Source of the DNA: Escherichia coli
Lineage (GTDB): Bacteria > Pseudomonadota > Gammaproteobacteria > Enterobacterales > Enterobacteriaceae
Assembly (NCBI RefSeq): GCF_050320075.1
Contig: NZ_CP190018.1
Direction: 5' to 3' (one strand)
Length of the DNA: 64,000 bases
Shown here: positions 2,722 to 45,871 of the stretch, piece by piece
How positions within the stretch are numbered: position 1 is the stretch's first letter
Layout: every line of letters begins with the position of its first letter
Made by a program: the position numbers and the translations under genes
Notes under the pieces: model-generated
Database searches by the model: none
The model's input: the letters and a program-made list of their open reading frames with translations, nothing else
Told to the model about the DNA's origin: nothing

Positions 2722-3605
2722 GTGCTTATCTTATTAGGTTACCTGGTTGTTCTCGGTACAGTTTTCGGCGGTTATTTGATGACCGGTGGAAGCCTTGGAG
2801 CACTCTATCAACCCGCTGAACTGGTGATTATTGCCGGTGCAGGGATTGGGTCGTTTATCGTCGGCAATAATGGCAAAGCGATTAAAGGCACGCTGAAGGC
2901 GCTGCCGTTGCTGTTTCGTCGCTCCAAATACACCAAAGCAATGTATATGGATCTGCTGGCTCTGCTTTATCGGTTGATGGCGAAATCGCGGCAGATGGGG
3001 ATGTTTTCGCTGGAACGTGATATTGAAAATCCCCGTGAGAGCGAGATCTTCGCCAGCTACCCACGCATCCTTGCGGATAGCGTCATGCTTGATTTTATCG
3101 TCGATTATCTGCGTCTGATTATCAGCGGTCACATGAACACCTTCGAAATCGAAGCCCTGATGGATGAAGAGATTGAGACGCACGAAAGCGAGGCAGAAGT
3201 CCCGGCGAACAGTCTGGCGCTGGTCGGGGACTCACTTCCGGCGTTTGGTATTGTCGCTGCTGTGATGGGGGTCGTTCACGCGTTAGGTTCAGCCGATCGT
3301 CCTGCCGCCGAGCTGGGGGCGCTTATCGCACATGCGATGGTGGGGACTTTCCTCGGTATTTTATTGGCTTACGGATTTATTTCCCCATTAGCGAGTGTTT
3401 TACGTCAGAAAAGCGCCGAAACCAGCAAAATGATGCAGTGCGTCAAAGTCACACTGCTTTCTAATCTGAACGGTTACGCACCGCCTATCGCCGTTGAGTT
3501 TGGTCGCAAAACGCTCTATTCCAGCGAACGTCCGTCGTTTATTGAACTGGAAGAGCATGTGCGTGCGGTGAAAAATCCGCAACAACAGACGACAACCGAG
3601 GAAGC

Positions 3606-14818: not shown

Positions 14819-16889
14819 TCTGGCCGCGATGCTGCGCCTGCCTGCAAACCTGAAATCGACACAATGGCAGATCCTTGCCGGACCGATTTTGATCCTGTTG
14901 ATTTTGTCGATGATGGTGCTGCCACTGCCCGCATTCATACTCGACCTGTTGTTTACCTTCAATATTGCCTTGTCGATCATGGTGTTGCTGGTGGCGATGT
15001 TTACCCAGCGCACGCTTGAGTTTGCTGCGTTTCCGACCATTCTATTGTTTACTACGTTGTTGCGTCTGGCACTTAACGTAGCTTCAACCCGCATCATTTT
15101 GATGGAAGGGCATACCGGCGCGGCGGCGGCTGGGAAGGTGGTCGAAGCGTTCGGTCACTTCCTCGTTGGTGGCAATTTCGCTATCGGTATCGTGGTGTTC
15201 GTCATTCTCGTGATCATCAACTTTATGGTCATTACCAAAGGTGCCGGGCGTATCGCAGAAGTGGGGGCGCGCTTTGTTCTCGATGGTATGCCGGGTAAGC
15301 AGATGGCGATTGACGCCGACCTTAACGCCGGATTGATTGGTGAAGATGAGGCGAAAAAACGCCGCTCCGAAGTGACTCAGGAAGCCGATTTTTACGGCTC
15401 AATGGACGGGGCAAGTAAGTTTGTTCGCGGCGATGCCATCGCCGGGATCCTCATCATGGTCATTAACGTTGTCGGCGGGTTGCTGGTCGGCGTGCTGCAA
15501 CATGGCATGAGCATGGGACACGCCGCGGAAAGTTATACGCTATTGACCATTGGCGACGGTCTGGTGGCACAAATCCCGGCGCTGGTGATTTCTACCGCCG
15601 CGGGGGTCATCGTTACGCGTGTCAGCACCGATCAGGATGTTGGCGAGCAGATGGTGAATCAGCTTTTCAGTAACCCGAGCGTTATGTTGTTAAGCGCCGC
15701 CGTGCTCGGTTTACTCGGCCTGGTGCCCGGAATGCCGAACCTGGTATTTTTGCTGTTCACTGCCGGATTGCTTGGGCTGGCCTGGTGGATCCGCGGACGT
15801 GAACAAAAAGCGCCTGCCGAACCAAAACCGGTAAAAATGGCAGAGAATAATACCGTTGTCGAAGCGACGTGGAACGATGTACAACTGGAAGATTCCTTGG
15901 GAATGGAAGTGGGTTATCGACTGATCCCGATGGTTGATTTCCAACAAGATGGCGAGTTGCTGGGCCGTATTCGTAGTATTCGTAAGAAATTTGCTCAGGA
16001 GATGGGGTTTCTGCCGCCGGTGGTGCACATTCGCGACAATATGGATCTGCAACCTGCACGTTATCGCATTTTGATGAAAGGCGTAGAGATTGGCACTGGC
16101 GATGCCTATCCGGGGCGCTGGCTGGCAATTAACCCAGGTACCGCTGCCGGGACGTTACCTGGTGAGGCGACCGTCGATCCGGCATTTGGCCTGAATGCTA
16201 TCTGGATTGAAAGTGCGCTTAAAGAACAGGCGCAGATTCAGGGGTACACCGTGGTTGAGGCCAGCACGGTGGTGGCAACGCATCTTAACCACCTCATTAG
16301 CCAGCATGCCGCAGAGCTGTTTGGTCGTCAGGAGGCGCAACAGCTGTTGGATCGCGTCGCCCAGGAGATGCCAAAGCTGACGGAAGATCTCGTTCCTGGC
16401 GTCGTCACGCTCACCACACTGCATAAAGTGCTGCAAAATCTGCTCGATGAAAAAGTGCCGATTCGCGATATGCGCACTATTCTCGAAACGCTGGCGGAAC
16501 ATGCGCCCATCCAAAGCGATCCACATGAATTAACCGCCGTCGTGCGCGTGGCGTTGGGACGGGCGATTACCCAGCAGTGGTTTCCTGGCAAAGATGAAGT
16601 TCATGTTATTGGCCTCGATACACCGCTGGAACGTTTGTTGCTACAGGCGTTGCAGGGCGGGGGCGGACTGGAGCCAGGGCTGGCGGATCGTTTACTGGCG
16701 CAAACTCAGGAAGCTCTATCCCGTCAGGAGATGTTGGGTGCGCCGCCAGTTTTATTGGTGAACCACGCGCTGCGACCATTATTGTCTCGCTTCCTGCGCC
16801 GCAGCTTGCCGCAGTTAGTGGTGCTGTCGAATCTGGAACTATCTGATAACCGACATATCCGCATGACGGCGACAATTGGCGGTAAATGA
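14811..16889 (+). CDS. flhA: Flagellar export apparatus protein FlhA
   Basis: 692 aa from MSNLAAMLRLPANLK...; overlaps flhB stop; ORF-track start at 14736 is an upstream extension. Confidence 0.95.
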   Translation: MSNLAAMLRLPANLKSTQWQILAGPILILLILSMMVLPLPAFILDLLFTFNIALSIMVLLVAMFTQRTLEFAAFPTILLFTTLLRLALNVASTRIILMEGHTGAAAAGKVVEAFGHFLVGGNFAIGIVVFVILVIINFMVITKGAGRIAEVGARFVLDGMPGKQMAIDADLNAGLIGEDEAKKRRSEVTQEADFYGSMDGASKFVRGDAIAGILIMVINVVGGLLVGVLQHGMSMGHAAESYTLLTIGDGLVAQIPALVISTAAGVIVTRVSTDQDVGEQMVNQLFSNPSVMLLSAAVLGLLGLVPGMPNLVFLLFTAGLLGLAWWIRGREQKAPAEPKPVKMAENNTVVEATWNDVQLEDSLGMEVGYRLIPMVDFQQDGELLGRIRSIRKKFAQEMGFLPPVVHIRDNMDLQPARYRILMKGVEIGTGDAYPGRWLAINPGTAAGTLPGEATVDPAFGLNAIWIESALKEQAQIQGYTVVEASTVVATHLNHLISQHAAELFGRQEAQQLLDRVAQEMPKLTEDLVPGVVTLTTLHKVLQNLLDEKVPIRDMRTILETLAEHAPIQSDPHELTAVVRVALGRAITQQWFPGKDEVHVIGLDTPLERLLLQALQGGGGLEPGLADRLLAQTQEALSRQEMLGAPPVLLVNHALRPLLSRFLRRSLPQLVVLSNLELSDNRHIRMTATIGGK

Positions 16890-26783: not shown

Positions 26784-27130
26784 TCAGAAAAGAGAAGATT
26801 GCTGTGGAATAGCCGGAACTGCTCCGATCTCTGGAAGCGTTTTACGTAAGTCTTCCCACAGGGTATGTACCAGTTCCGGGGCCTGGGCAATATCTGGCGT
26901 ATGTAAAAAAAGATAAGGCGTAGTGGTCTGATGCCACTGCGCTAATTTTTGTAACCAGACCTGAAATAATTCCCGGTTTTGCGTCATATCATCACTACCG
27001 ATAAAACGGATCAGCGGATTTGTCGCCGTCAGTACAGCATGTACCGGAACTTTAGGTTTTTTTCGTTGAGCGTCGCGAATAGCTTCACTGTGTGGACGTG
27101 CTGCATGAACCGGGCGGCTGTCTAAAATCA
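26784..27130 (-). pseudogene. yecE: yecE 3' fragment (C-terminal ~114 codons), separated from its 5' half by a 12.2 kb insertion
   Basis: Translation ...ILDSRPVHAARPHSEAIRDAQRKK...QQSSLF continues in frame from the 5' fragment at 39369 once the insert is removed; the ORF-track start at 27134 is a TTG artefact. Confidence 0.85.
27124..27130. repeat. attL core (AAAATCA) of the yecE insertion
   Basis: Identical 7-mer at 39363-39369; left flank joined to right flank restores yecE codons ...NRVILDSR... Confidence 0.65.
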
Positions 27131-27189
27131 TCAAGGTCTAAATGCACTACATGGGCACCTAAACATATACATGTGATGTTGAGGTGTTA

Positions 27190-27210
27190 GAAAGGGGGCT
27201 GTTCAGCCCC
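27190..27210 (-). terminator. Rho-independent terminator for the 306-aa leftward gene
   Basis: On minus strand GGGGCTGAACAGCCCC hairpin followed by CTTTCT, immediately after the stop at 27219. Confidence 0.7.
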
Positions 27211-27218
27211 TGATAGAC

Positions 27219-28139
27219 TTAGTAATTATCCCTGACAACTTCATCATATCTTTCAATGAAGGTTAGTTGTTTATTACTTCCATTATAACTATCAACCCAT
27301 TTGTCTACAGCTTCATCGAATAGAAATAAAAAATCCGTATAATTTATATACACTACATTATCATAATATTGGGTTGGGTGACCTCTTTTACATACAGCAA
27401 TACTAAGACGTCTTTCTTTACCCTGAGTAACTTTGTGTGAATTAAGATTAGTCATGTGAAGCAATGAGTTCCTTAATTCATATAATTCGTCGGAAGTTAC
27501 TCCAAGTTTTTGTATATCTGAGTATGTATCTAACCAATTTTGAAAGACTCTTCTTTTGTTTCCAAACTCAATATAAGCTATAGTATCAATAAATGACATT
27601 AATAGCTTGAAGCTTGACAAGTAATGTTTTTTGTTAAACAGAAGCTTTATTGGTTCCATATGGTCATCATTAAGAAGTTCCTTAATGTGAAAACCATCAT
27701 CTTTCATATACTTATCAAGATAGTCTGGCAAGTCTTTTACACCTTCAATGTGATAGTTAGGTGTGTGCTTATTCCTTAATTGCTCTGACATTGATAACTG
27801 AATATCATATTGTAATTTGCCTTTAACAACGGGGGTGACTATAGCTAAAGGGTTTTCAGGTGCATTTTGAGCTTCTAATGCTAATTCAAACGGAGCAAAA
27901 GGATTACCAATCCGCAAATTTGCATTATATCTTTCAAGTGTCAATTTGTCATTTTCTAAAACAGAAGGGTGTATCCCATAAAATAAACGACAAGAAGCTA
28001 AGTCAATCTCCAAATTCCGCTTTAAAAAATCTAATTTTTGCGCATCATCGCCATCATGTTCGTGAGGTACTATTCCGGCATGTGTGATATGAACTCCATC
28101 AGGACTAAAGCAAAATATGTTGTAGATAATCTCTTTCAT
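27219..28139 (-). CDS. Hypothetical 306-aa protein, AT-rich, counter-oriented accessory gene in the element; has one R-x4-H (RNSLLH) motif
   Basis: Uninterrupted ORF with ATG start, own terminator, transcribed opposite to the rest of the element; no family recognised by eye. Confidence 0.6.
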   Translation of the reverse strand: MKEIIYNIFCFSPDGVHITHAGIVPHEHDGDDAQKLDFLKRNLEIDLASCRLFYGIHPSVLENDKLTLERYNANLRIGNPFAPFELALEAQNAPENPLAIVTPVVKGKLQYDIQLSMSEQLRNKHTPNYHIEGVKDLPDYLDKYMKDDGFHIKELLNDDHMEPIKLLFNKKHYLSSFKLLMSFIDTIAYIEFGNKRRVFQNWLDTYSDIQKLGVTSDELYELRNSLLHMTNLNSHKVTQGKERRLSIAVCKRGHPTQYYDNVVYINYTDFLFLFDEAVDKWVDSYNGSNKQLTFIERYDEVVRDNY

Positions 28140-28400
28140 ACCATTCTAACCTTCAGTGAAAATAAAGTTTTAACTATCATTAGATTATGAACAATCACAA
28201 TTGGCCTGTAAATAACAGGGCATAAACAGGTTCGTTTAGCTTGATTTTATCACTATAACTGTCTGATTTAACGGTAACTCACCAAGTATACACACAGTAA
28301 TTACACAATCCTGTTATTATGTAACTTATTGAAATATATAAATAATTTTTACATTCTTTGTTTGGGGTAAGCTGTGTAATGTTAGTCGTCCCTCTCCAGA

Positions 28401-28414
28401 CACTATATATAGTG
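28401..28414. promoter_or_regulatory. Perfect 14-bp palindrome CACTATATATAGTG in the 1.1 kb ORF-free spacer
   Basis: Read directly; embedded in a run of TATATA-containing repeats. Confidence 0.4.
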
Positions 28415-29102
28415 CTATATACAGGACTATATAACGATATATAGATGTTTGGTCACATGGTATAACTATCAAACCACTTAACGATTTCCTACGTGAAAGT
28501 TAGAAAGTGATAGTTATAGTTACCTTGTCAAATCTTCGTAGTCCCTTCTTAAAAAATCGTGAAAGGTAATCTTGTTATCTATACAGAATCTACGTAGATG
28601 CTTCTTAGTGCGCAAAACAGCTATTATGTTAAAAACGCACTGTATACGTATCAGTACTGATTTATAAGGGTTTTGTGTATTGGCTGATAAGAGGCTATAC
28701 AGCACCTTGAGAGCATGTCTTCTAAGTCATTGACATATAAGGTCACAGAAGTTTGTAGCTGTTACAGAGAAAACTGGATAGGACTTCACAGAACTATAAA
28801 ATGTTACAGCTATTGATAGGTGAAATCTTCTTGATAGATGCTTTGAAGTGTGGTGAAGGCTTTTTGAGGTGGGGCTAAACAGATATCATGAAGAAAGTCA
28901 ATAGTTGATTCGGTTTATCGAATAAACCTCATAGATATTTTAAAATTCTGCAAAGGGGGTCACATAGCTGGTGTGACGGGTACTTAGCAGCTACAGACAT
29001 CTATCAGATATTTTTGAAGATTTTTAGAAGGGGAATTTGAAGAGGGGCTACTACGATTTTATAAAAATTTTCAGATTCTGAAAAGTTACTGTACAGAATA
29101 TG

Positions 29103-29127
29103 TACAGATATCTTTAAAGTATCTGTA
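29103..29127. promoter_or_regulatory. Inverted repeat TACAGATA-N9-TATCTGTA (candidate operator) upstream of the MTase gene
   Basis: Read directly; adjacent direct repeats GTACAGA(A/T)AT and GATATCC x2. Confidence 0.4.
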
Positions 29128-29249
29128 AAAACTTTTAAGATAAAAGATAGATATCCCAGAAAGGATATCCGTTTAGAAAACCTATTAAGTATCTCTTAAA
29201 AGAGAGTAAACCTTGTCAAGAGTGATTGCAATAAAAATTTTTATTTCTT

Positions 29250-29912
29250 ATGTCAATTGAGTGTATTTTAATCGGGAAACATCATGGGGGTTCTGATTAC
29301 TGGAGAACTCCATTTTTGTTATTTAAGAACTTACACCGTGAATTTATTTTCAGTCTGGATGGTGCTGCAACTAAGCACGATACGTTATTACCCCGCTTTA
29401 CGGATGATATTCACAATCAGTCATGGGATGGTGAACGGGTATTCTGTAACCCACCATACAGCGACACTAAAACATTCCTCGTAAAAGCGTCTGAGGCAGA
29501 TTTATCGGTATTCCTGATACCGTACCGACCCCAAACCATATACTGGCTTAAGCACATCTTCACAAACCCGCTTTGCCATGAAATCCGTATTCTTCATCGT
29601 GCAGTTAAATACCTTCCACCAGCAGGGCATAACAGGCTTACTATTAGGTCGCCGTTTCCAAGTGCAGTCGTTGTTTTTAAAAAAGAACCACGCAGGCATG
29701 AAATTACGCAGATGGTTTGCTGTGCTGATACATTGCTACCGTTAACCATCATTAACAGAGGAGGCTTGAGAGGAAGGCCCACCATTTACCCACCTGAGAC
29801 GCTCGACAGCTTCATAAAACTATACAGGCAAGGCAAACCCATTAAGTGCATTGCAGATGCTCTCAGAATGCCTCTGAGCACGTCATACAGGATTGCTCAA
29901 AGGTTGAGCTAG
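29250..29912 (+). CDS. Phage-type DNA N6-adenine methyltransferase (Dam family) with C-terminal HTH-like tail
   Basis: SDYWRTPF...FSLDGAA...FCNPPY motifs typical of phage Dam MTases; C-terminal GRP...IADALRMPLSTSYRIAQRL resembles an HTH. Confidence 0.75.
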   Translation: MSIECILIGKHHGGSDYWRTPFLLFKNLHREFIFSLDGAATKHDTLLPRFTDDIHNQSWDGERVFCNPPYSDTKTFLVKASEADLSVFLIPYRPQTIYWLKHIFTNPLCHEIRILHRAVKYLPPAGHNRLTIRSPFPSAVVVFKKEPRRHEITQMVCCADTLLPLTIINRGGLRGRPTIYPPETLDSFIKLYRQGKPIKCIADALRMPLSTSYRIAQRLS

Positions 29913-30052
29913 AATTCTCATAAATATGGTCATTTACAAGACAGGTGATTTAGATATTAAGAGGTATCCCTGTGAACAATAAATGACCAATCAGTAATTA
30001 TCCTGTGAAATAATTGTTGCAATTTATAATCACACATGGTATAGTTTCATAG

Positions 30053-30197
30053 TGGACTGATAAAAAAGTTCATGTCTTGAAGTGGTAACACTTGGGGAGG
30101 TGTCAGATGATTGACGTATATTAACCTCTCATTCATGGTAATACCTCAGCGTTTTAATCATCGTACTGTTTCAGGCATGGACTTCTTTATCAGTCCA
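30053..30197. promoter_or_regulatory. 145-bp segment bracketed by a perfect 12-bp inverted repeat (TGGACTGATAAA / TTTATCAGTCCA) upstream of the initiator gene
   Basis: Read directly at 30053-30064 and 30186-30197. Confidence 0.4.
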
Positions 30198-30276
30198 TCA
30201 ATCCCCCAGATATTTTAATCACACAGGCTAATCGGTTTTATCCGGTTGGCCTTTTCACGTATGAGGTAATTTATGA

Positions 30277-31245
30277 ATGAAAAAAGAAACTAATGCTTTT
30301 ATTATGGTAGATAAACGAGTTGCACAATTCCCTAAAACATTAAAGCCAATTGACCGCTTGGTATATTTCACTATGCTGGATGGTGCTGATTATTACGAAT
30401 CTAAGTTCGGGAGATACGCACCAAGTATTGACTATTTGATGGTTATGTCTGGTGCTACACGTAATACAGTTATTGATTCACTTAAGAGACTTGAGTCACA
30501 CAGACTTATCGAAAAGACCAATGTAAAGGGTCAGCAAAGTATTTTTAAAGTATTCACGTTGGATGAGCGTCCAGAGGTCTTATCAGAACCTACCCTTGAT
30601 GAGCGTCGTAGAGCTAAATTATCAGGTCAACCAGAATCTGACAGTAACCCAACCAAAAATTGGTTACCTACCCAACCAGAATTTGGTTACCTACCTAACC
30701 AGAATTTGGTTACATGTAATACTGAATATAAAGACAAAAATATAAATACTGAAGAAGAAAGACTAAAAGGGAACTTTGAAGAAGAATCTCTTAAGAAGGG
30801 AGCTTCGCTCTGTGATTCACATGAATGTGATATTAAAGAAGATGACTTTCTTTCTTTGGATGAATTAAATGATTTTCTCTCTATGAATGAATCTGGCCTT
30901 GATAGTGAAGCTACTAAAGAGGCTGTTAAAAAGGAAGATAAAATCTCTGATGTGAATATCGATAGTGACCATAAAAACACACAGTGCCCCGCCACTGATG
31001 ATGAGATGGACCCCTTCGATGATTACCTTGATGAAGAGTCAGAGCGTGAAAAAGCCATTAAGAGGGTAGAGAAGAAAAAGAGATTCGAGCTTGCAAGACA
31101 AAAGAACAAAGTATCGGGTTTAGACCCATTCGATGACAGTGACGATGATGACTTTTCTTTCACACCAAGAAAGAAACAAACTCAGGATGACAAGAAGCAA
31201 AAAATTAAACCGAAGATGTATTTTGCTGGTGGAGGTATGCGCTAA
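30277..31245 (+). CDS. Putative replication initiator / replisome organiser (N-terminal winged-helix-like domain, acidic C-terminal tail)
   Basis: N-terminus resembles phage initiator DNA-binding domains; tandem iterons inside the ORF; highly acidic low-complexity C-terminal half. Confidence 0.55.
   Translation: MKKETNAFIMVDKRVAQFPKTLKPIDRLVYFTMLDGADYYESKFGRYAPSIDYLMVMSGATRNTVIDSLKRLESHRLIEKTNVKGQQSIFKVFTLDERPEVLSEPTLDERRRAKLSGQPESDSNPTKNWLPTQPEFGYLPNQNLVTCNTEYKDKNINTEEERLKGNFEEESLKKGASLCDSHECDIKEDDFLSLDELNDFLSMNESGLDSEATKEAVKKEDKISDVNIDSDHKNTQCPATDDEMDPFDDYLDEESEREKAIKRVEKKKRFELARQKNKVSGLDPFDDSDDDDFSFTPRKKQTQDDKKQKIKPKMYFAGGGMR
30641..30714. repeat. Tandem 23-bp direct repeats (iterons) inside the initiator ORF: TTGGTTACCTACC(C/T)AACCAGAAT
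   Basis: Two full units at 30660-30682 and 30683-30705 (1 mismatch) plus flanking partial units. Confidence 0.8.
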
Positions 31246-31541
31246 TGAAAGAATATCACGGTGAAAAGAGATACAAAGATTACCTGTTAAAGCGTTATAG
31301 CATTTCTCGTGAAGGCCACTTAATGAAGGATACTCACGGGGAAGTTTACCGGATTAGACCGAAGAAAGAAGGGAGGGATTATTTCTTTTACGATGGTGTG
31401 ACAGATTTAAAGATTGATGCTTTGAAGTTTGCGGCGCTGTATCATTATGATATCTGGGACTCAGTCCACCAGCTACGATTAAAAGACGGTGACCCCGGTA
31501 ATCTGAGGGCCACCAATATTATCAAGGGAAAGTGCCGGTAA
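31245..31541 (+). CDS. Small HNH_3/NUMOD4-like protein (98 aa), catalytic His not evident
   Basis: YSISREGHLMKDTHGEVYRIRPKKEGRDYFFYDG...LKDGDPGNLRATN resembles NUMOD4/HNH_3 layout; overlaps initiator stop. Confidence 0.45.
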   Translation: MKEYHGEKRYKDYLLKRYSISREGHLMKDTHGEVYRIRPKKEGRDYFFYDGVTDLKIDALKFAALYHYDIWDSVHQLRLKDGDPGNLRATNIIKGKCR

Positions 31542-31864
31542 GTCCACCAGCTATTTATTTATTGAAATCTCTATCTCAACACGAAGAAGTTTAAGTCGAA
31601 TTGTAAGCTTTGTCTTTTTTGTAATGACTCGATTCATAACGCAAAACACCAATAGCACAATAAATACCGCAAAGCCCAACGAGCTAAAACGATGAGATTC
31701 AATAATTGCTGTGAAAAAATCATGCATTAATTTTCCTTTTGCGAAAGGAAACAGCACCTGTATCAGCCCCTATAACCATAATATCATGTAAATGAGATGT
31801 TGACAATATGTTAAATAAATGTTATGATTGTAGTATGAGTAAGAGATTTAAGGAGATTTTTACA

Positions 31865-32155
31865 ATGACTCACACAGTTACGCGCCTTTTGCCAGAGGCA
31901 TTTGAACGACTGGCAGCAATCAAAGCCAAATATCCCGATATGAAGCACACAGCGCTTGTTGGAGAGCTTTTAAAAGAGTCGGTAACCCTGACCCCTTTCG
32001 ATAACGTTAAGGGCGTTGCAGAGGGTTCTAAGGCCATCAGAATCACAACGGACCAACTGGAACTACTCAAAGCACAGTCCGCAGTAGCAGGTTGCTCAAT
32101 GATTCAGGTGTTAAGCGCAAAGGTCCATCAATTAGCGGATAGGCTGGGGGTTTAA
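31865..32155 (+). CDS. Hypothetical small protein (96 aa)
   Basis: AAGGAG RBS 8 nt upstream of ATG at 31865; ORF-track start at 31808 is probably an extension; stop overlaps next gene (TAATG). Confidence 0.5.
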   Translation: MTHTVTRLLPEAFERLAAIKAKYPDMKHTALVGELLKESVTLTPFDNVKGVAEGSKAIRITTDQLELLKAQSAVAGCSMIQVLSAKVHQLADRLGV

Positions 32156-32580
32156 TGCTATGCACATTTGATTATCATGCGTTTTATCGCCATAGAGGCC
32201 ACCTTGTCCGTGAGAATAGCGGAACATGGAAAGATTTAACTCGTAATGCTGAACCCTTCACACACCAGCAATTAAAATCCCGCTTCTCCAGATGGAAGAA
32301 TGCACCAGCAGATACTGGTGATTTTGAGATTATCCATACCTTCGATTATGCCTCAGAAGATGACCTTCACGATGCAATTAAGCTGATTGAAGACTTCAAT
32401 ACCTCAGAAGATGTGGATGGTGACAAATATAAATCCCGTGGTAACCGCTATAACCGTGATGATATCACTCAGGCCATAAATGCTGGTCAATCTCAGCGAT
32501 ACATTACAGAAAAATATGGTATTTCACGGAGACAGTATTTCTACGTTAAATCATTGATTAATAAAGACAATTCAAAATAA
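32155..32580 (+). CDS. Hypothetical protein (141 aa) with C-terminal HTH-like segment
   Basis: Translationally coupled to upstream gene; C-terminus ...QSQRYITEKYGISRRQYFYVK resembles a Hin/resolvase-type HTH. Confidence 0.5.
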   Translation: MLCTFDYHAFYRHRGHLVRENSGTWKDLTRNAEPFTHQQLKSRFSRWKNAPADTGDFEIIHTFDYASEDDLHDAIKLIEDFNTSEDVDGDKYKSRGNRYNRDDITQAINAGQSQRYITEKYGISRRQYFYVKSLINKDNSK

Positions 32581-32741
32581 CCATCTCAGTAACGGTAGAA
32601 TGCACTTTACAGGCAGAGTTGCACCTTAATTTGATAAATTACCTTACCAGCCAGTGCAACTCCCTCTGTAACCCGCATGATTACTGGTCTCAGAATGGCT
32701 ATTTTAAGAGGTCTGAGATGTGTTTTGTAGGAGATTTAAAA

Positions 32742-33065
32742 ATGAACAACTTCCCATTACAGATTTTCGTTGATAACGACACCGCTATGATGGTGCAAAG
32801 CTTCAGTGATGCAGGTATTAGCATTGATTTTGACAGGCTGTTAAAGCTAATGGCTGATAATGAAGAAAACGTCTCTGACTTTATTCACTCGGTGGAGTTT
32901 AACGAGCCTCGAATGATGTTACCAATTACAGACAGTAATATGAAAAGATTGGTTATTGAGCAAACGAACAAATACAGTATTTCCCCAGAGCAATTTTTGA
33001 AAGGTGCTGTGACAATCCTGTACAGCGATAATATTTTGGTTACGGATTCCGTGAGGGTTCACTAA
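32742..33065 (+). CDS. Hypothetical small protein (107 aa)
   Basis: GGAG-type RBS before ATG at 32742; ORF-track start at 32619 is probably an extension. Confidence 0.45.
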   Translation: MNNFPLQIFVDNDTAMMVQSFSDAGISIDFDRLLKLMADNEENVSDFIHSVEFNEPRMMLPITDSNMKRLVIEQTNKYSISPEQFLKGAVTILYSDNILVTDSVRVH

Positions 33066-33359
33066 TGGGCTTAATAATTGCTTGGACGTTGCTTGGCTTA
33101 TTTGTTGGTTGCTGGGTAGGCAGCACAGTAAATAGAAATTGATGTTACCAATCTGTTAAAAAGCTGTTGACAAATAACCTTAAGCATGAGATGATGGTAA
33201 TAGGGGAGAGCAACTCTCTCTTATTTTTCTTTCAAAATAATCCGATGGATGGATATTCTGAATTGGAAAGGTGCAATGCTTTTCGTCATGGCCTTTCAGT
33301 TTAGTCTGAGAGGCTATCTCAAAAAGTGCTTAATCATTCATTGAACCCTTTACAGCTTT

Positions 33360-33387
33360 GCCCTAACTCATGATTAGGGCTTTCTTT
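33360..33387 (+). terminator. Rho-independent terminator-like hairpin
   Basis: Stem GCCCTAA/TTAGGGC with 7-nt loop followed by TTTCTTT. Confidence 0.55.
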
Positions 33388-33456
33388 AAGAGTTTTTAAA
33401 CAGAGCTTTTAAAGAAAGTTTTTCCTGAAACTTCGTTAACGTTAAAGCAAACCTTC

Positions 33457-33520
33457 AAAGCCCTTCACAGATGAGGATGATTCCATGAATATCCGAATCA
33501 CCTATGTTTAGGGCTTTTTT
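33457..33520 (+). ncRNA. Long-loop hairpin with U-tract (candidate small RNA 3' end or attenuator)
   Basis: Outer stem AAAGCCCT/AGGGCTTT enclosing inner GGAT/ATCC stem, followed by T6. Confidence 0.3.
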
Positions 33521-33636
33521 CAGCTTTTAAAAAGCATACTTGGCAAACGCCTTTTAAGCCTCTTCTAAGTTCGAGGATGTCAGGTGTGCTTTTTAAAAAC
33601 TGAAACATAAATTATCTTAGAAGAGGAAAGGTATTA

Positions 33637-34341
33637 ATGGCTATCCGTGATGAAAATGAAATGATTATTGAAAACAAACCAAGTGCACTTGATATTCACG
33701 AATTAAGTTTGCGTGAATCTTTTGATAGAGCTTGGCGGGAATCACACGAAGTAAATAAAGGTCCATATATTCCACCAGAACCACTCGAGATTCCAAGAGT
33801 TGAAATTGATTTTTCTATGAACGAACGGTGTGAACTTGATTTGAAGTTGAAGCTACAACGCCGATATTTCCAAGCTATTAAAGACTCTCAAGAAGCAATG
33901 AGAAGTGTTTATGAGAAAATTCAGTCCAAGCTTGAAGACGAAATTGACGAAATGGCTATTTTGATGGAGCTTCAAACCAATCCTTATGCTTATTTCTCTC
34001 GACTAGACCGTGACGGTTGGGGGTATGACCCTGTAGAGATTGGTAAAGTGATTGCAGATTTACCAGAAGGTCAAAGGGTTATTCGTACGGAAAGGGCCAT
34101 CAGAGCGCCACATCAACTGTCTCTAATTGTTGCTGATAAATCACAAGCTGAGCTTGAAGAAATTGCCAAAGAGAAACTGATGAAAGCAAGAGAAAATGAG
34201 ATTAATTTGCTGAAATCAAGACTGGCTAAGCTGATTAGTGACCATCAAGCGCTGGCTAAGGAGTACCGTCAAGAGTTGGCACAGATTATCAGCTTCAATG
34301 ATTTTCTGAGTGTTCCACGAGAATTTAGCAAGGCTGTTTGA
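33637..34341 (+). CDS. Hypothetical protein (234 aa), charged coiled-coil-rich
   Basis: ORF with ATG and GAGG-type RBS; no family recognised. Confidence 0.55.
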   Translation: MAIRDENEMIIENKPSALDIHELSLRESFDRAWRESHEVNKGPYIPPEPLEIPRVEIDFSMNERCELDLKLKLQRRYFQAIKDSQEAMRSVYEKIQSKLEDEIDEMAILMELQTNPYAYFSRLDRDGWGYDPVEIGKVIADLPEGQRVIRTERAIRAPHQLSLIVADKSQAELEEIAKEKLMKARENEINLLKSRLAKLISDHQALAKEYRQELAQIISFNDFLSVPREFSKAV

Positions 34342-34364
34342 TTATGAATTAAAAGAGGTGATTA

Positions 34365-34583
34365 ATGTATGAAGACCGTTTGGAAACTATCAAGGCAGTT
34401 TGTGAAAAACTTAAAAACCAACCACGTAAACCAAAAACGGTAAAGAGTAAGCATCAGCCTGTCACCTCAAACAGCAAAATAAAGATTCGCAAAATTCCTT
34501 CGTGGTGCATTGACCGTATTCCGGTTGGTTCAAGAATTATTCGTGAAGATGGTGATTATCATTGGGTATCAGTTGTTGGTTAG
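34365..34583 (+). CDS. Hypothetical small basic protein (72 aa)
   Basis: RBS GAGGTG before ATG; gene-dense context. Confidence 0.45.
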   Translation: MYEDRLETIKAVCEKLKNQPRKPKTVKSKHQPVTSNSKIKIRKIPSWCIDRIPVGSRIIREDGDYHWVSVVG

Positions 34584-34671
34584 TTAGTAAAAATCTACGG
34601 GAGAGATTATCGAGTGATATCGGTAGCTCTCCCTTTTTCGTATATGAACACTTAAGAGGTGAAAAATATGA

Positions 34672-36804
34672 ATGAGCAAATTCACAGTTGATAGTTTTAT
34701 CGTTGAATTAAGCTTCAATGAAAACATTATTAAGGGCTTGCAAAGAGTTGAAAAGGCAGCTTTGCAGTCAGCACAAAGAATTGAAAAGAACCTAAATAAA
34801 GGTTTCAGGATTAATACAAAGCAGCTTGATAGTAATTTAACGGCTTCTTTAGGGCAGCTTGAAAGGAAGTTTAATAAGGCCTTTGACAAGATTGAACAGA
34901 GAGCAAGAAATACTAAAGCTTTCCAGTTTACCACCAGATTTAATGACACTGTTAATCCTCCAAAACAACCGAGACAGCCACGAATTAGCGGCAACAGAGC
35001 AATCACAGCAGCTTACTCAGCGAATATGAGCAAGCTAAAAGGCTTTGACCCTATTTTGCAGAAATACATCAAATCTCAGTTTTACGGGCTATCTGCTAAA
35101 GCCGGTTCAATGGATTCTTCAAAATTCAATGAGAAGTTAGCTCAGTTAAACGCTTCAGTCAGAGAAGCAATTGCTAAAGCCAGAGGTCATACATCCACCA
35201 GCATTAATGGTGACAGAGCAGCTAATAGTCTTGATAACCTGTCTTCAGCAGCAGTTAAAACAGCAGGTGCATTTATCTCAATGCAGGCTGTATTAGCCAG
35301 TTATCAGAAGATTATGGAAATTGGTTTACAGCGTGCAAGTGCTGAACGTTCAATTGATTTCGTATTTGATAAAGATGCAGGTCAAGTAAAAGAGTTCACA
35401 AAGTCATTAGCTCAAACAACGGGTTTAGATATCGCTGAACTGCAATCACAGTTTGCTGGTTTTGGTGCTTCAGCTAAAGAGTCTATGGGCATTCAAGGTT
35501 CTGAAGAACTTTTTAAAAATATGATTGGCTATGCTCGTCTGATGGGGAGAAGTGAAGAAGAGATTAAGCGAGCACTGACAGCATTATCACAGATGGCTGG
35601 TAAGGGTCAGGTTATGGCTGAAGAGCTTAAGGGGCAATTAGCTGAAGCTGTTCCTGGTATGGTTCAGGTATTCGCTAAAGCAACCGGAAGGAATGAACAA
35701 GAGCTATTTGATGCCATGAAGAAGGGGGCTTTAAAATCTGCCGATACTCTTCAGAAGGTCACTCAGGAACTGAATAAACAAATCACCGCTAAAGGTGGCT
35801 GGAAAGCTATTTCAGAAAGTACACAGGCACAACTAGGGAACCTGAAAAACTCTTGGAATACCACGCTTGATAGTATCTTCAGAGGTTCTGAAGATGGTCT
35901 GCAAGATTTTACAAGAAGCTTAACAACGCTTTTAAACGCTCTTGGTGGAAGTGGTAAAAGTCTTGGTGAATCTCTTGGTAGTCTCATGACTTCTATGTCA
36001 CATGGTGTCGATTCATTGACTGATATCAGCTACAGGGTAAGAGCATTCTTCGATGAGGTGACATTAGCTTACCGTTCACTAAATGACACTCAGAAAAAAA
36101 TTGTTGATGGTTTATCTGATGGGTTAATTGATGGTTTGAAGATGCTTGCCGTAGCTGTTACTGCTCAAAAGGCTGCAAATGTAGCTGGAGGCTTGTTAAA
36201 CCTTGCAAATGCTGTTACTTCATTCGGTGATGCTGTTAATAAAGCTAAAGCTGGCAAGGCTGGTTCTTCAGGTGGTGCGCTAAATAAAGTTGGTAGAGTT
36301 GTTCTTTATGCTGAGTTGGTGAACTTTGCTCTTGATAATTTAAACCCTGAAGCGGCTAAGAATCCGAACTTACACCAATCAGGTATTGGAACAGAGACAA
36401 ACTTCAACCCTGAATACAAAGGCGATTCATCTAAACCAAACCAAATTAATGATGGATGGGCTAAGATTGGTAGTTCTATCGCTGACTGGTTTAATGGTGC
36501 GGCTAATAAAATTGCTAACTTCCAAGACCCGATGAATAACTTTGTTAATAACACACAATCAACTCCACCAGCTATCACAGGTGACATGGTTAATAGCAAT
36601 GCTCAACTTGCTATGGCTGTATCAGAGTTAGGAAGAAAGGTAGACGCTTTAACAGTAGAAGCTAAGAAGCCTTTATCAGTTAATATCAAAGGTGAAGCAA
36701 TTGTTAGACCGGATGAACCAGCTTTCTTTACTTTCAATCAATCAGCTAATGACCAGTTCACGCAGGATATGCTCTTAAGTTCAAGCTATCCAGAGGAAGA
36801 ATGA
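34672..36804 (+). CDS. Tape-measure-domain-like protein (710 aa)
   Basis: Central segment ...MAEELKGQLAEAVPGMVQVFAKATGRNEQELFDAMKKGALKSADTLQKV... resembles the conserved phage tape-measure domain; Ala/Gly/Ser-rich low-complexity C-terminal part. Confidence 0.55.
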   Translation: MSKFTVDSFIVELSFNENIIKGLQRVEKAALQSAQRIEKNLNKGFRINTKQLDSNLTASLGQLERKFNKAFDKIEQRARNTKAFQFTTRFNDTVNPPKQPRQPRISGNRAITAAYSANMSKLKGFDPILQKYIKSQFYGLSAKAGSMDSSKFNEKLAQLNASVREAIAKARGHTSTSINGDRAANSLDNLSSAAVKTAGAFISMQAVLASYQKIMEIGLQRASAERSIDFVFDKDAGQVKEFTKSLAQTTGLDIAELQSQFAGFGASAKESMGIQGSEELFKNMIGYARLMGRSEEEIKRALTALSQMAGKGQVMAEELKGQLAEAVPGMVQVFAKATGRNEQELFDAMKKGALKSADTLQKVTQELNKQITAKGGWKAISESTQAQLGNLKNSWNTTLDSIFRGSEDGLQDFTRSLTTLLNALGGSGKSLGESLGSLMTSMSHGVDSLTDISYRVRAFFDEVTLAYRSLNDTQKKIVDGLSDGLIDGLKMLAVAVTAQKAANVAGGLLNLANAVTSFGDAVNKAKAGKAGSSGGALNKVGRVVLYAELVNFALDNLNPEAAKNPNLHQSGIGTETNFNPEYKGDSSKPNQINDGWAKIGSSIADWFNGAANKIANFQDPMNNFVNNTQSTPPAITGDMVNSNAQLAMAVSELGRKVDALTVEAKKPLSVNIKGEAIVRPDEPAFFTFNQSANDQFTQDMLLSSSYPEEE

Positions 36805-36967
36805 TTTCTTATATATCCGTGTGCTACGTGATTTCTTCTGAACAGATATACCCACTAAAAATTATTTTTTACGTAGCTCACGCTTAACAGAGAAAATACT
36901 TATATATCAAAGGCTTGGTTAAAAATGATTAAAATACACTAAGCCTTTGAAATCAAAGGAGAATTTA

Positions 36968-37741
36968 ATGATTTACTCTAATCAGATTCGTTACAGTGGT
37001 AAAGATGGCGTTTACTTTCATCTACAAGGCCAGCCAGATAATTTCTTGTCACTATCAGCTACTGAGAACATGGAATTTGACAGCCCTATGATGGTTACCA
37101 CTCAAAATATGCAATCAGGGCAGACTGTCACAGATAATGTAATGCGTTCACCCAGAACTATTTCAATCAGTGGTGTGGTTGTAGTTGGTGAATCCGGTAG
37201 TATCCTTATCTCAAGAGATAATAAGCTGGTGGAAAACTTCATAGACACTCTTGAAAACTGGCGTGACCAGAAGCAAATTATCTCAGTTGTCTGTAAAGAT
37301 GGTATTAAGATTGACGACTCAATTATTACAAACTTTAAAGCCTCTAAAGATGTTGGTATTGCCAATGGTCTTAGAATCCAATTAACTTTTCAGGAAATTA
37401 ACTTTAAAGCTATTGTGGGTCAGACTGATATCTCGGCTGCGACCGGAAGGACTTCTACCACAAGTGATGGTGGTGCTACCAGTAAAAAGAATACAGGGAA
37501 CACTACGACAAGCTTAGGTAACGGTATGTTGATGTGTCAGGAGCTATATAATCGCTCTACGAGTGAACTTACTAATGAGCAACTTCAAGCCCGTATCAAT
37601 TGTGGTAAAAATGTCAGAGTTAAGAACGGAAAAAGCACCTTCTCAGATGCCGCTAATGAGCAAGCTTCAAAGGTGCTTAATAATGCTGGTACAGGTAGTA
37701 CTTTGAAGAAGTATTCTGTTAATCCTAACAAGCGATACTGA
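36968..37741 (+). CDS. Hypothetical protein (257 aa), possible virion/tail-associated
   Basis: AAGGAG RBS before ATG at 36968 (ORF-track start 36947 is TTG); directly follows the tape-measure-like gene. Confidence 0.45.
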
Positions 37742-37755
37742 CGATAGAATCTCAA

Positions 37756-39279
37756 CTATATGATAACCTCATCAACATCTATTAAACCCCTCTCAGTGAC
37801 TTCAGAAAGCGACTGTATAGCCTCTGTAACGTTGTCTGAGGGGTTTTCTGTTATTGGTAAGGTGATTGCTTTACCGTTGTGAAAAGTTACTTTACAGCGA
37901 CGTTTAGCAGTATTTAAAACGACCTCTTTAACAGCACTTTTGATTATCAGTTGTGCTTCAATCCTTCCCGCCTTTGTAGTCAAGTCACAATCAGACAAAC
38001 AACCCACATCAATAGATTTAAGGCGTTGTGTCTCCTTCTCGATATCCGCATCAACTTGTGATAGCTCATTCTTTAGTTGTCTTAGTTTGCTGGTAATAGC
38101 GGACAAGTCTTCAATTTCAAGTGATAGCTGTACCAGCTTTTCAATATTGCTTGAGATGTGTTCACGGTGTAGCTTCAGTGTGTCTATGGTATTCGTCATA
38201 TCGCTATCAAATCGGTCAAGACGAGATAGCAGGGCAAGCAATGTACCATCGGTTTGCTTACGTGAAAGTCCTTTAGCACTACAACGGTTTTCATTACGAA
38301 GAGGACAACGATAAATCCCGTTTCTTGTATCGCTAAAGCCTGTGATAATCAAAGCATGACCACATTCAGAACAACGGATAACACCTTTGAAAAGATTCAC
38401 AGCCATTGGCTTATCTGAAGCAGGTTTTCTACCGTAACGAGCATATGATAGTTGTTGAACTTTGTAGAATGTTGTTTCATCTATAATTGCAGGATAATAA
38501 CCAGATATCTCCTCACAGCCTTTAGGTGTGAAGTAACCAATTACAGAGCGATTCTTCAAAAGGTCTTGCACTGAGGTTTGACCAAACTTACCTGCTTTGT
38601 ACTGGTTAAGCGTCTGGTGACCTTCAGCATTAAGAGTTCTGACAATCTCCCAGATAGACTTACCCTCTAACCGTAGCTGAAAGCACCTCTTCACAGTCTC
38701 CACTTTCTCAGGTATCACAGAGAAGCTTTTACGGTCATCATTAAGCTTAAGCCATGCAGGACAACGCCTAGAAATCTTGATACCAGCTTTAGCAGCTTCT
38801 TTCTTTGCATCCCATGCAGCTTGTATACGCTCAGCCTTACGTAATGATTCCTCATGCGCCCTTTGCATTATCAAAATGCTTTTAATCAGAGCTAACGGGT
38901 CTTTAAGAGATTCCCTTGTGTAATGTTCACCATCGGACAGGGTGACTACATCTACACCAGAGCGAAGAATGTTTCTGAGTAGCTCACTTGCTTGGTCTAC
39001 GTCCTGACGTGAGAGACGGTCTAAACTCTCGATTAGTAGTGTATCACCAGCTTTAACAAGCCCTTTCTCGATAGCGGTTAAAAAGTCACCTAAGCCACCT
39101 TTCAAGTGCTTACCAGTGAACCCGCTAACGCCTAAATCACGAAAAGTAAGGGATTCATCCAGATAGTACTCAGGATGAGCCTTAAGCCAATCAGTGACCA
39201 TCTTAGCCTGTCGTCTTAATGAGTCGCCTCTGGATTGCTTCTCAGATGAAAACCGGATGTAACTGATTGCACGTTTCAT
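37756..39279 (-). CDS. Large serine recombinase (integrase)
   Basis: 507 aa; N-terminal resolvase-type catalytic domain (YIRFSSEKQ with catalytic Ser), recombinase domain, Cys-rich zinc ribbon (CSECGH...YRCPLRNENRC), C-terminal coiled coil; adjacent to attR. Confidence 0.9.
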   Translation of the reverse strand: MKRAISYIRFSSEKQSRGDSLRRQAKMVTDWLKAHPEYYLDESLTFRDLGVSGFTGKHLKGGLGDFLTAIEKGLVKAGDTLLIESLDRLSRQDVDQASELLRNILRSGVDVVTLSDGEHYTRESLKDPLALIKSILIMQRAHEESLRKAERIQAAWDAKKEAAKAGIKISRRCPAWLKLNDDRKSFSVIPEKVETVKRCFQLRLEGKSIWEIVRTLNAEGHQTLNQYKAGKFGQTSVQDLLKNRSVIGYFTPKGCEEISGYYPAIIDETTFYKVQQLSYARYGRKPASDKPMAVNLFKGVIRCSECGHALIITGFSDTRNGIYRCPLRNENRCSAKGLSRKQTDGTLLALLSRLDRFDSDMTNTIDTLKLHREHISSNIEKLVQLSLEIEDLSAITSKLRQLKNELSQVDADIEKETQRLKSIDVGCLSDCDLTTKAGRIEAQLIIKSAVKEVVLNTAKRRCKVTFHNGKAITLPITENPSDNVTEAIQSLSEVTERGLIDVDEVII

Positions 39280-39346
39280 TGTTCACCTCACCAATAGCAG
39301 TTGGGCTTGTACCAACCCCTAGATTGTATCGCTTTAGATGGTGTAT

Positions 39347-39841
39347 TTAAACGTGTCTAATAAAAATCACCCGATTAACGCCGCGCTGATGTAAACCGCG
39401 ATTAAGCGTTTGTTCCTCTTCCCCTTTGGCGAAAAACTGTGGATGGCGGACTTCCACACCATAATTAAATTCGCCGGGAAGGGAATCGAGAAAATGCCAA
39501 AGCGCAGGCAGATCCCGTGGGCCAAATGTGGCAGGCAGTTGCAGCCAGTATTGCCCAATGCGCGGCGCTAACGGTGACATGCGGGTCAAAAATTCAGTCA
39601 CTAAATCATCGCAATGCCGTAATGCTGCCTGATGCGAAATGGTCGCCGGAAACTTAAAACAGAAGCGAAAATTATCTGTGGTCTGCTCACGCCAGCGCAG
39701 GACAACCTCGGATTTCGGCAGGGCGTAAAGCGTGGTGTTGCCCTCCACACAGTTAAAGTGGCGGGCATACTCTTCAAGGCTGGTGATCCCCAACCGCACC
39801 CATTTAGGATGCGACCATTGCGGCAGACCGATGTAAATCAT
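39347..39841 (-). pseudogene. yecE: yecE 5' fragment (N-terminal ~158 native codons, reads 6 codons into the insert before a stop)
   Basis: Translation [29 protein letters not shown]... (DUF72); 158 + 114 codons reconstitute a 272-aa protein. Confidence 0.85.
39363..39369. repeat. attR core (AAAATCA) of the yecE insertion
   Basis: Identical 7-mer to 27124-27130. Confidence 0.65.
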
Positions 39842-45259: not shown

Positions 45260-45871
45260 GTGATAGGCAGACTCAGAGGCATCATCATTGAAAAACAACC
45301 CCCGCTGGTGTTAATTGAAGTGGGCGGCGTAGGCTATGAAGTGCATATGCCGATGACCTGTTTTTATGAACTCCCTGAAGCGGGTCAGGAAGCGATCGTT
45401 TTCACCCACTTTGTGGTGCGTGAAGACGCGCAACTGCTGTACGGTTTTAACAATAAACAAGAGCGCACATTGTTCAAAGAGTTGATCAAAACCAACGGCG
45501 TCGGCCCGAAGTTAGCGCTGGCGATCCTCTCCGGAATGTCAGCGCAGCAGTTCGTTAATGCCGTTGAGCGTGAAGAAGTGGGGGCACTGGTGAAACTGCC
45601 GGGTATTGGCAAAAAAACCGCCGAACGCTTGATTGTTGAAATGAAAGACCGATTTAAAGGTTTGCATGGCGATCTCTTTACGCCAGCCGCCGACCTGGTA
45701 CTCACGTCTCCTGCCAGCCCGGCGACCGACGATGCTGAACAAGAAGCGGTTGCCGCGCTGGTGGCGCTGGGCTATAAACCACAAGAAGCAAGCCGCATGG
45801 TGAGCAAAATCGCTCGCCCTGACGCCAGCAGTGAAACATTAATTCGCGAAGCCCTACGCGCCGCGTTATGA
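45260..45871 (+). CDS. ruvA: Holliday junction branch migration protein RuvA (GTG start)
   Basis: 203 aa [28 protein letters not shown]... Confidence 0.95.

Follow-up and report, generated by a model that had tools for sequence, protein, structure and literature searches.

To our knowledge, detailed accounts of satellites that exploit strictly virulent phages come only from Vibrio cholerae, where PLE, a satellite of phage ICP1, decides the outcome of phage predation during epidemics. PLE uses a large serine recombinase as its integrase and has its own initiator (RepA) with iterons, as does the element that splits yecE in the DNA analysed in the present study, a window of 64,000 nucleotides (the whole stretch, to which positions refer unless another record or locus is named) from Escherichia coli contig NZ_CP190018.1 of NCBI RefSeq assembly GCF_050320075.1. 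The P4-like elements, PICIs and cf-PICIs resemble the yecE element in being small E. coli integrative elements that exploit a helper and hold variable cargo slots; they have tyrosine integrases and temperate helpers, and their hallmarks are the alpha primase, sid, psu and delta in P4, alpA and pri-rep in PICIs, and a full capsid module in cf-PICIs. No PHROG or NCBIfam match to these hallmarks (AlpA, primase, small terminase, capsid, Sid, Psu, Delta) was obtained in the yecE element. With respect to tails, every PLE has genes for a tape measure protein (TMP) and a tail chaperone, to which some PLEs add one for a hub protein; the products are 19-41% identical to those of ICP1, and PLE virions contain the PLE TMP with the phage TMP excluded; that study covered Vibrio satellites and cf-PICIs only (10.1101/2025.01.29.635557). 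The EPIPs of Mycolicibacterium aichiense also have a serine integrase and their own TMP, and altered tail length suggests that they hijack tails; they differ from the yecE element in adding a small terminase, head-tail adaptors, a scaffold and a capsid protein, in depending on a temperate prophage of an actinobacterium, and in an unrelated sequence context (10.64898/2025.12.02.691453).

Herein, we propose that the yecE element exploits Felixounavirus as a satellite in the manner of Vibrio PLE, forming chimeric tails and being packaged by the terminase of its helper, a reading to which we assign a probability of about 0.65. We incline slightly, rather than firmly, to the broader statement that a widespread, undescribed family in E. 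coli and its relatives parasitises strictly virulent Felix O1-like phages by terminal-repeat packaging, a rebuilt tail core and a conserved small RNA. The literature search, which most papers in subscription journals lay beyond, returned no description of the yecE element or of any Felix O1-like phage satellite. The satellite reading is favoured because searches detected no genes for head, terminase or lysis in an element that has its own recombinase and replicon, because a compact gene order is kept in hundreds of genomes and at several sites, because the element copies the terminal-repeat boundary of the helper, and because its only phage-like structural genes are those for the TMP and the tube initiator, which are neighbours in Felix O1 and whose products lie together in the Bas63 hub. 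Three features generally expected of satellites were found, namely no capsid, motor or lysis match of its own, a recombinase together with an initiator and iterons, and helper-specific sequence features.

From its gene content, the element would be a PLE-like phage satellite in logic; the two are likened by description, and no sequence relationship was seen, PLE sequences not having been compared. The likeness lies in a chromosomal island of 12-18 kb, in a strictly virulent myophage as helper (ICP1 for PLE), in a partial tail module of a TMP and a hub-proximal protein (incorporated into chimeric tails in PLE, putatively so here), and in a small RNA that is conserved (a candidate in the yecE family, SviR in PLE). 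The differences are as follows. The yecE element resides in Enterobacteriaceae with Felixounavirus as its proposed helper genus, in contrast to V. cholerae and ICP1; its second tail protein is a Dit-like tube initiator rather than the BhuB hub, and in the yecE family this protein is 70-95% identical to that of the helper compared with 41% in PLE; neither a TcaP-like scaffold nor a tail chaperone was recognised; and the yecE element mimics a direct-terminal-repeat boundary for packaging.

Several lines of evidence bear on this proposal. First, the tail genes point to virulent Felix O1-like myophages (Ounavirinae, Felixounavirus) as the helper rather than to lambdoid or Stx phages. Among 50,697 phage genomes, the best matches of the TMP were Felixounavirus TMPs at approximately 30% identity, with none closer, and all records among the best tail-gene matches shown were virulent Felix O1-like phages. 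The first 49 aligned positions of the TMP are 61% identical to the Felixounavirus TMP and the C-terminal LSSSYPEEE is identical at 9/9 residues (the last 30 nt are 97% identical here and 100% in some relatives); identity to the phage TMP falls to 4-37% in the middle, and it is mostly below 30%, with a local peak of 50%, beyond the termini and the central TMP region. The 264-residue product that the initial annotation had left unnamed is the tail-tube initiator, matching PDB 9ndy_A, "Tube initiator protein (gp018)", at E=5.5e-114 and Pfam PF21821 (Dit_like) at 3.8e-19. It is 70% identical in amino acids (aa), and approximately 80% in nucleotides, to Felix O1 ORF68, the gene immediately 3' of the Felix O1 TMP gene. 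No open reading frame (ORF) of the element other than these two has a homologue in Felix O1 or AYO145A. Cryo-electron microscopy of Bas63 showed that the initiator hexamer sits on the hub and starts the tube, and that the TMP touches both the hub and the puncturing protein with its C-terminal 25 residues (PMC12609058); because that structure shows the docking, the regions kept in the TMP and initiator of the element would be those that must dock into the phage baseplate. Compared with the Felixounavirus tail core (Bas63 TMP gp17 and initiator gp18; 9ndy; PMC12609058), the initiator of the element is a clear orthologue and its TMP shares the termini and the central TMP_3 region, whereas the TMP is 20-54 aa shorter and no further virion gene accompanies these two on the chromosomal island. 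Among the relatives, the identity of the tube-initiator gene to AYO145A ranged from 70% to 94.6% at the nucleotide level, which indicates repeated recent recombination between phage and element and hence co-residence in one cell. The 5' 518 nt of the gene in locus L006 (13232-13749) are 94.6% identical to AYO145A 45273-45790, and this segment points to a recent gene conversion between phage and element.

Second, two non-coding segments 5' of the dam gene match Felixounavirus DNA, and all 222 of the 222 phage records that match the non-coding region upstream of dam are Felix O1-like. One segment (28934-29096) is 72% identical to AYO145A 15808-15971, including a block of 27/27 (GATATTTTAAAATTCTGCAAAGGGGGT) and a block of 36/42. 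Its phage counterpart lies in a gene-free gap of approximately 1.6 kb, which in AYO145A is flanked on both strands by terminators annotated in the record. Felixounavirus Pr103Blw was reported, from PhageTerm, to package by a direct terminal repeat (DTR) of 581 bp (PMC8303462), and its GenBank record annotates this DTR inside the gene-free gap. The segment of the element aligns to gap positions 2972-3135 and the DTR ends at 3022, so that it straddles the right DTR boundary. The linear record of phage RPN213 has its end 78 nt away from the repeat boundary in Pr103Blw, which is suggestive and no independent proof of the terminus. Thus, 28934-29096 is a putative copy of the terminase recognition or cleavage region, offering a precise candidate for the site that is recognised for packaging in Felixounavirus, which is otherwise unmapped, and a role in recruiting phage replication functions is possible. 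The copy is conserved in every relative that covers it, even in those with a different replication module. The other segment (29132-29189) is 86% identical over 58 nt to AYO145A 24316-24261 and Felix O1 21633-21578, and in AYO145A the match is a palindrome-bearing stretch in the divergent regulatory region between gp044 and gp045. In the element, as in the phage, a motif ACCTTGTCAAG..TTG(T/C)CAA comes next; this motif (ACCTTGTCAAG..TTGTCAAC) occurs three times per phage, and two of the three AYO145A copies (24218 and 65821) are in non-coding regions with promoters annotated in the record. This arrangement suggests that the first operon of the element may be wired to the phage transcription programme. 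Since both the terminal-repeat and the promoter mimicry are conserved, selection is indicated.

Third, the element belongs to a mobile family. Relatives were sought, as had been advised when the locus was first described, and the core (30277-37741) matched 482 of 5,426 complete E. coli genomes (approximately 9%), in at most 4 places per genome, while the present recombinase type was found in 296 genomes, near the approximately 284 with a split yecE junction. The family, with element sizes of 10-19 kb, uses at least three attachment sites and at least two divergent serine recombinases: a second group of members lies between yciI and tonB, with a recombinase approximately 34% identical to the present one, and a third between mdtG and lpxL, one of the latter being in another enterobacterium, with flanks only 76% identical to E. 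coli. The same gene order was observed in Citrobacter freundii, and homologues of the 234-aa protein carry Shigella sonnei names, among others. A scan of species-representative genomes with a tube-initiator profile gave no relative and is uninformative, there being one genome per species. In a gene comparison of 12 loci (the present copy and 11 relatives), the TMP is present in every relative, and the tube initiator and the 234-aa protein in all relatives covering them, the TMP and tube initiator being the most universally conserved genes of the family. The 96-aa, 107-aa and 72-aa proteins were found in 8-10 of the 11 relatives. The replication module, the dam gene, the 141-aa protein and the cargo next to attL vary across the loci; the terminal-repeat copy, a mid-element region and the spacer between the TMP and initiator genes are non-coding parts conserved throughout.

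Fourth, a conserved structured region before the gene of the 234-aa protein is a candidate small RNA. It contains a sigma-70-like promoter (TTGACA-17-GATGAT, 33167-33195), the predicted RNA would span 33196-33392, and the fold has a z-score of -3.7. Among nine family members, 12 of 39 pairs have compensatory changes, compared with 5.5±1.6 in shuffles (0 of 500 reach 12), and 91% of the alignment cells are paired versus 43-62% with slid partners. All members of the family, Citrobacter included, conserve the region, and they do so even where identity in the neighbouring gene drops to just 25%. Rfam gave nothing above noise.

Taken as a life cycle, the proposal would run as follows, with dependence on the helper, induction, excision, replication, packaging, chimeric tails and interference all inferred. 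The large serine recombinase would place the element in yecE. Upon infection by a Felixounavirus, the copies of phage promoters would activate the rightward operons and the element would excise, possibly with an excision factor supplied by the phage. The initiator would then fire the iteron origin within its own gene, and the helper terminase would recognise the terminal-repeat copy and move element DNA into capsids made by the helper. On the baseplate hub of the helper, the TMP and tube initiator of the element would replace the phage versions to give chimeric tails, and phage production would probably be impaired. The slot adjoining attL would hold variable cargo.

Several results weigh against this scheme. 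Only the right boundary of the DTR is mimicked, the left boundary having no significant match in the present copy. The excised attP junction, sought as a 31-mer, was not found in viral or metagenome contigs, and the central 5.4 kb of the element is in no deposited phage record; judging by their numeric UViG identifiers, the matches in IMG/VR seem to be prophages called in isolate genomes. No capsid-size-redirecting protein, small terminase, tail chaperone or excision factor was identified in the element. A length of 12 kb is a misfit for a T=9 capsid of 86-88 kb without multimer packaging or size redirection. Decayed copies are also present in some lineages, for example those with IS2 in the TMP gene. 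Such TMP genes, split by an IS2-family insertion, were seen in genomes H124-H131 from human and animal isolates. As a side observation, 7 x 12,246 gives 85,722 bp, near the Felix O1 genome of 86,155 bp; since the size of members varies between approximately 10 and 19 kb, the fit of seven lengths may be a coincidence, or else it may be connected with the packaging of multimers.

Some of these gaps are what one would expect of a defence island that is not transmitted by phage, in which the TMP and initiator act as dominant-negative tail decoys and the terminal-repeat copy as a terminase decoy, the island spreading by conjugative mobilisation, generalised transduction or transformation. This explanation draws on the same Felixounavirus-specific features, and it accounts for a packaged form being absent from viral and metagenome contigs and from phage records and for the lack of an identified capsid-remodelling gene. 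The cargo slot also resembles the defence hotspots of other mobile elements, and PLE11 shows that tail assembly is a target of defence (10.1101/2025.01.29.635557). However, a pure decoy needs neither both docking termini nor a full-length TMP (688-722 aa), and it needs no iteron replicon of its own; movement between sites and genera and ongoing recombination with phages fit phage transfer better. Every characterised element with such mimicry that we know of is also packaged. We consider the decoy explanation unlikely, although it is the most serious of those that compete with a Felixounavirus satellite.

The initial annotation had left the choice between a phage satellite and a strongly reduced prophage; the evidence favours the first, and a core gene set that is constant across sites and genera tells against the second. 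In its specific form, the prophage explanation sees the remnant of a temperate relative of Felix O1 that lost its head, terminase and lysis genes, as the phage-type genes (TMP, tube initiator, Dam, O-like initiator, integrase), the AT-rich composition and the insertion sequences in some copies might suggest. Random decay would not, however, leave a compact set in approximately 480 genomes at no fewer than three sites with intact cognate recombinases; the initiator and the central 5.4 kb are absent from the 50,697 phages, the best TMP match anywhere is 30% and in virulent phages, the best tail-gene matches shown are all from Felix O1-like virulent phages, and the conserved terminal-repeat and promoter mimicry is a sign of selection. 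We regard a defective prophage as improbable. Least probable of all, and close to dismissal, is an element unrelated in lifestyle to Felixounavirus that gained a tail-gene cassette by chance recombination, since, despite the mosaicism of phage genomes and phage homologues for just 2 of the 12 genes, no genes are more universally conserved in the family than those of the TMP and tube initiator, two separate non-coding regions match the phage too, and a phage identity varying between 70% and 94.6% among members indicates many exchange events and not one.

If the satellite reading is true, the element would be the counterpart of PLE in the bacterium that has been studied best, and its target would be a phage genus with uses in typing and therapy. 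It could explain strain-to-strain differences in resistance to Felix O1-like phages, which matter in typing, biocontrol and therapy, and it would allow a test of whether rebuilding the tail core with an own TMP and tube initiator is a general strategy of satellites. It would also be a tractable model in E. coli, Shigella and Citrobacter, given that the BASEL phage collection includes Felixounaviruses and that a cryo-electron microscopy structure of the Bas63 virion exists. The features of the locus are collected in Table 1.

Table 1. Features of the yecE element and its borders, in window coordinates.
Feature	Positions	Strand	Remarks
yecE (DUF72), 3' fragment	26784..27130	minus	RefSeq pseudogene in L001
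Left AAAATCA core (attL)	27124-27130
Cargo gene, 306 aa	27219..28139	minus	variable slot adjoining attL
Conserved non-coding block with palindromes	28322..28720	not assigned	73-92% identical in L005, L006, L007, L018, L021
Mimic of right boundary of Felixounavirus DTR	28934..29096	plus	predicted cut near 28984
Putative copy of phage promoter region	29132..29232	plus	palindrome AGATATCC-CAGAAAGG-ATATCT, then ACCTTGTCAAG..TTGCAA; directly 5' of dam operon
DNA N6-adenine methyltransferase (Dam-type), C-terminal helix-turn-helix	29250..29912	plus	phrog_111 2.4e-25
Replication initiator-like protein	30277..31245	plus	phrog_270/428/678 weak, 1e-7 to 1e-6; Pfam HTH_36 0.005
98-aa ORF	31245..31541	plus	in 4/11 relatives
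96-aa core protein	31865..32155 (RefSeq start; mechanical ORF from 31808)	plus	homologues in 8/11 relatives
141-aa protein, weak C-terminal helix-turn-helix	32155..32580	plus	part of variable module
107-aa core protein	32742..33065	plus	family core gene
Candidate small RNA, ~190 nt	33167..33392	plus	promoter, three hairpins, terminator 33360-33380
234-aa core protein	33637..34341	plus	candidate chaperone or assembly scaffold
72-aa core protein	34365..34583	plus	directly 5' of TMP gene; in 9/11 relatives
Tape measure protein (TMP), 710 aa	34672..36804	plus	phrog_4036 1e-79
Conserved spacer, TMP to tube-initiator genes	36822..36895	plus	82-96% identical in all covering relatives
Tail-tube initiator (Dit-like; annotated "phage baseplate protein"), 264 aa	36947..37741 (RefSeq start 36968)	plus
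Large serine recombinase (integrase), adjoins attR	37756..39279	minus	phrog_95 1.9e-79
Right AAAATCA core (attR)	39363-39369
yecE (DUF72), 5' fragment	39363..39841	minus

The boundaries of the insertion were determined exactly. The crossover of the element is AAAATCA, and the insert, one repeat copy counted, is 12,239 bp long (27131-39369). The precise split of yecE, the 7-bp direct repeat and the in-frame rejoining to 272 aa described in the initial annotation were all reproduced: 26784-27130 joined to 39370-39841 gives a single 272-aa DUF72/YecE frame (...NRVILDSR...). The comparison with uninterrupted genomes that it called for established attB, the reconstructed 270-nt empty junction being found unbroken and with 100% identity in E. 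coli strain 7/2. Across the 5,426 complete E. coli genomes, the junction is unbroken in 5,139 and split in approximately 284. An identical insert (100%) is present in strains YZLc1-3 and Ec-U3, and the RefSeq annotation at the identical locus of YZLc1-3 has two DUF72 pseudogene halves with 12 coding sequences between them, not the 13 ORFs counted at first. The insert is indeed AT-rich, with a GC content of 0.33-0.45 in 500-nt windows compared with approximately 0.52 in the flanks; that of the element as a whole is approximately 0.39, close to the 38.7% of Felixounavirus. The immediate flanks are torZ, cmoB, cmoA and yecN on one side and yecD and aspS on the other.

The suggested competition with lambdoid or Stx phages for this site found no support. 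The Stx-phage att core in yecE is CAYGCAGTTAA (PMC5592225), and this sequence is absent from the window. A lambdoid/Stx link of the recombinase was rejected as well, its closest phage homologue being a lambdoid YbcK-like protein at just 36% identity. The recombinases of the relatives carry Resolvase, Recombinase and Zn_ribbon_recom domains.

The other gene calls made at the outset fared well for the most part. The profile matches in Table 1 agree with a large serine recombinase beside attR, a Dam-type methyltransferase, a tape-measure-like protein and, at a weaker level, an initiator-like gene with internal iterons, of which 3-4 direct 23-bp repeats were located at 30624-30715. The claimed lack of capsid, terminase, portal and lysis genes was likewise upheld, with no capsid, portal, terminase, holin or endolysin among the element ORFs in searches of PHROGs, NCBIfam, PADLOC and Pfam. 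The HNH/NUMOD4-like call for the 98-aa ORF found no support, this ORF giving zero matches in any of these libraries. The iterons within the initiator-like gene are a putative internal origin, and the protein itself has no match among the 50,697 phage genomes. The methyltransferase matches the PADLOC orphan methyltransferase profile (1.3e-13), the only known defence system that PADLOC reported in the element, and falls under the cut-off of TIGR01712; the methyltransferases of the relatives have a Pfam Dam match.

Among the core proteins, the 234-aa protein is a candidate chaperone or assembly scaffold on the basis of its predicted structure. The AF2 model (pLDDT 74) is a long antiparallel coiled-coil hairpin with a small alpha/beta tip, and a fold search with it gave generic coiled-coil, prefoldin and Skp-like matches only, nothing informative. 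The protein family comprises five full-length clusters at 50% identity among 1.84 billion representative proteins. The 72-aa protein is, by position only, a possible chaperone analogue. The 96-, 107- and 72-aa proteins gave no PDB match, and the 96- and 72-aa proteins also lacked any profile match.

The 306-aa cargo gene is specific to the present variant and is missing from all 11 relatives compared. Its product had no PHROG, NCBIfam, PADLOC or Pfam match, and a single-gene defence or accessory function is possible. Homologues are scattered over Klebsiella, Pectobacterium, Pantoea, Enterobacter, Stenotrophomonas, cyanobacteria and Planctomycetota. Between the cargo gene and the terminal-repeat copy, the block at 28322-28720 is dense in palindromes, for example TATATAGTGCTATA / TACAGGACTATATA at 28403-28444, and it is the left-most conserved part in family members without cargo. 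In L007 (strain ECONIH4, in yecE), the recombinase is of the same type (93% identical protein), the replication module differs and Dam is lacking; a much larger cargo region (L007 1-4500) holds an FRG-domain protein, several hypothetical proteins and an ISNCY transposase.

Two further non-coding stretches deserve mention. The TMP and tube-initiator genes abut in Felix O1, judged by gene coordinates, without the gap of approximately 140 nt seen in the element, and the conserved sequence of approximately 73 nt within this gap may be a promoter or a regulatory element. In L014 the same sequence is duplicated just 5' of the TMP gene (2826-2897). Finally, back-to-back near-consensus sigma-70 promoters were observed at 31778-31828 (11/12 and 10/12 matches, each having an extended -10 TG), with a hydrophobic 68-aa ORF of the minus strand (31551-31757, unannotated in RefSeq) on one side and the gene of the 96-aa core protein on the other, a layout that looks like a genetic switch.

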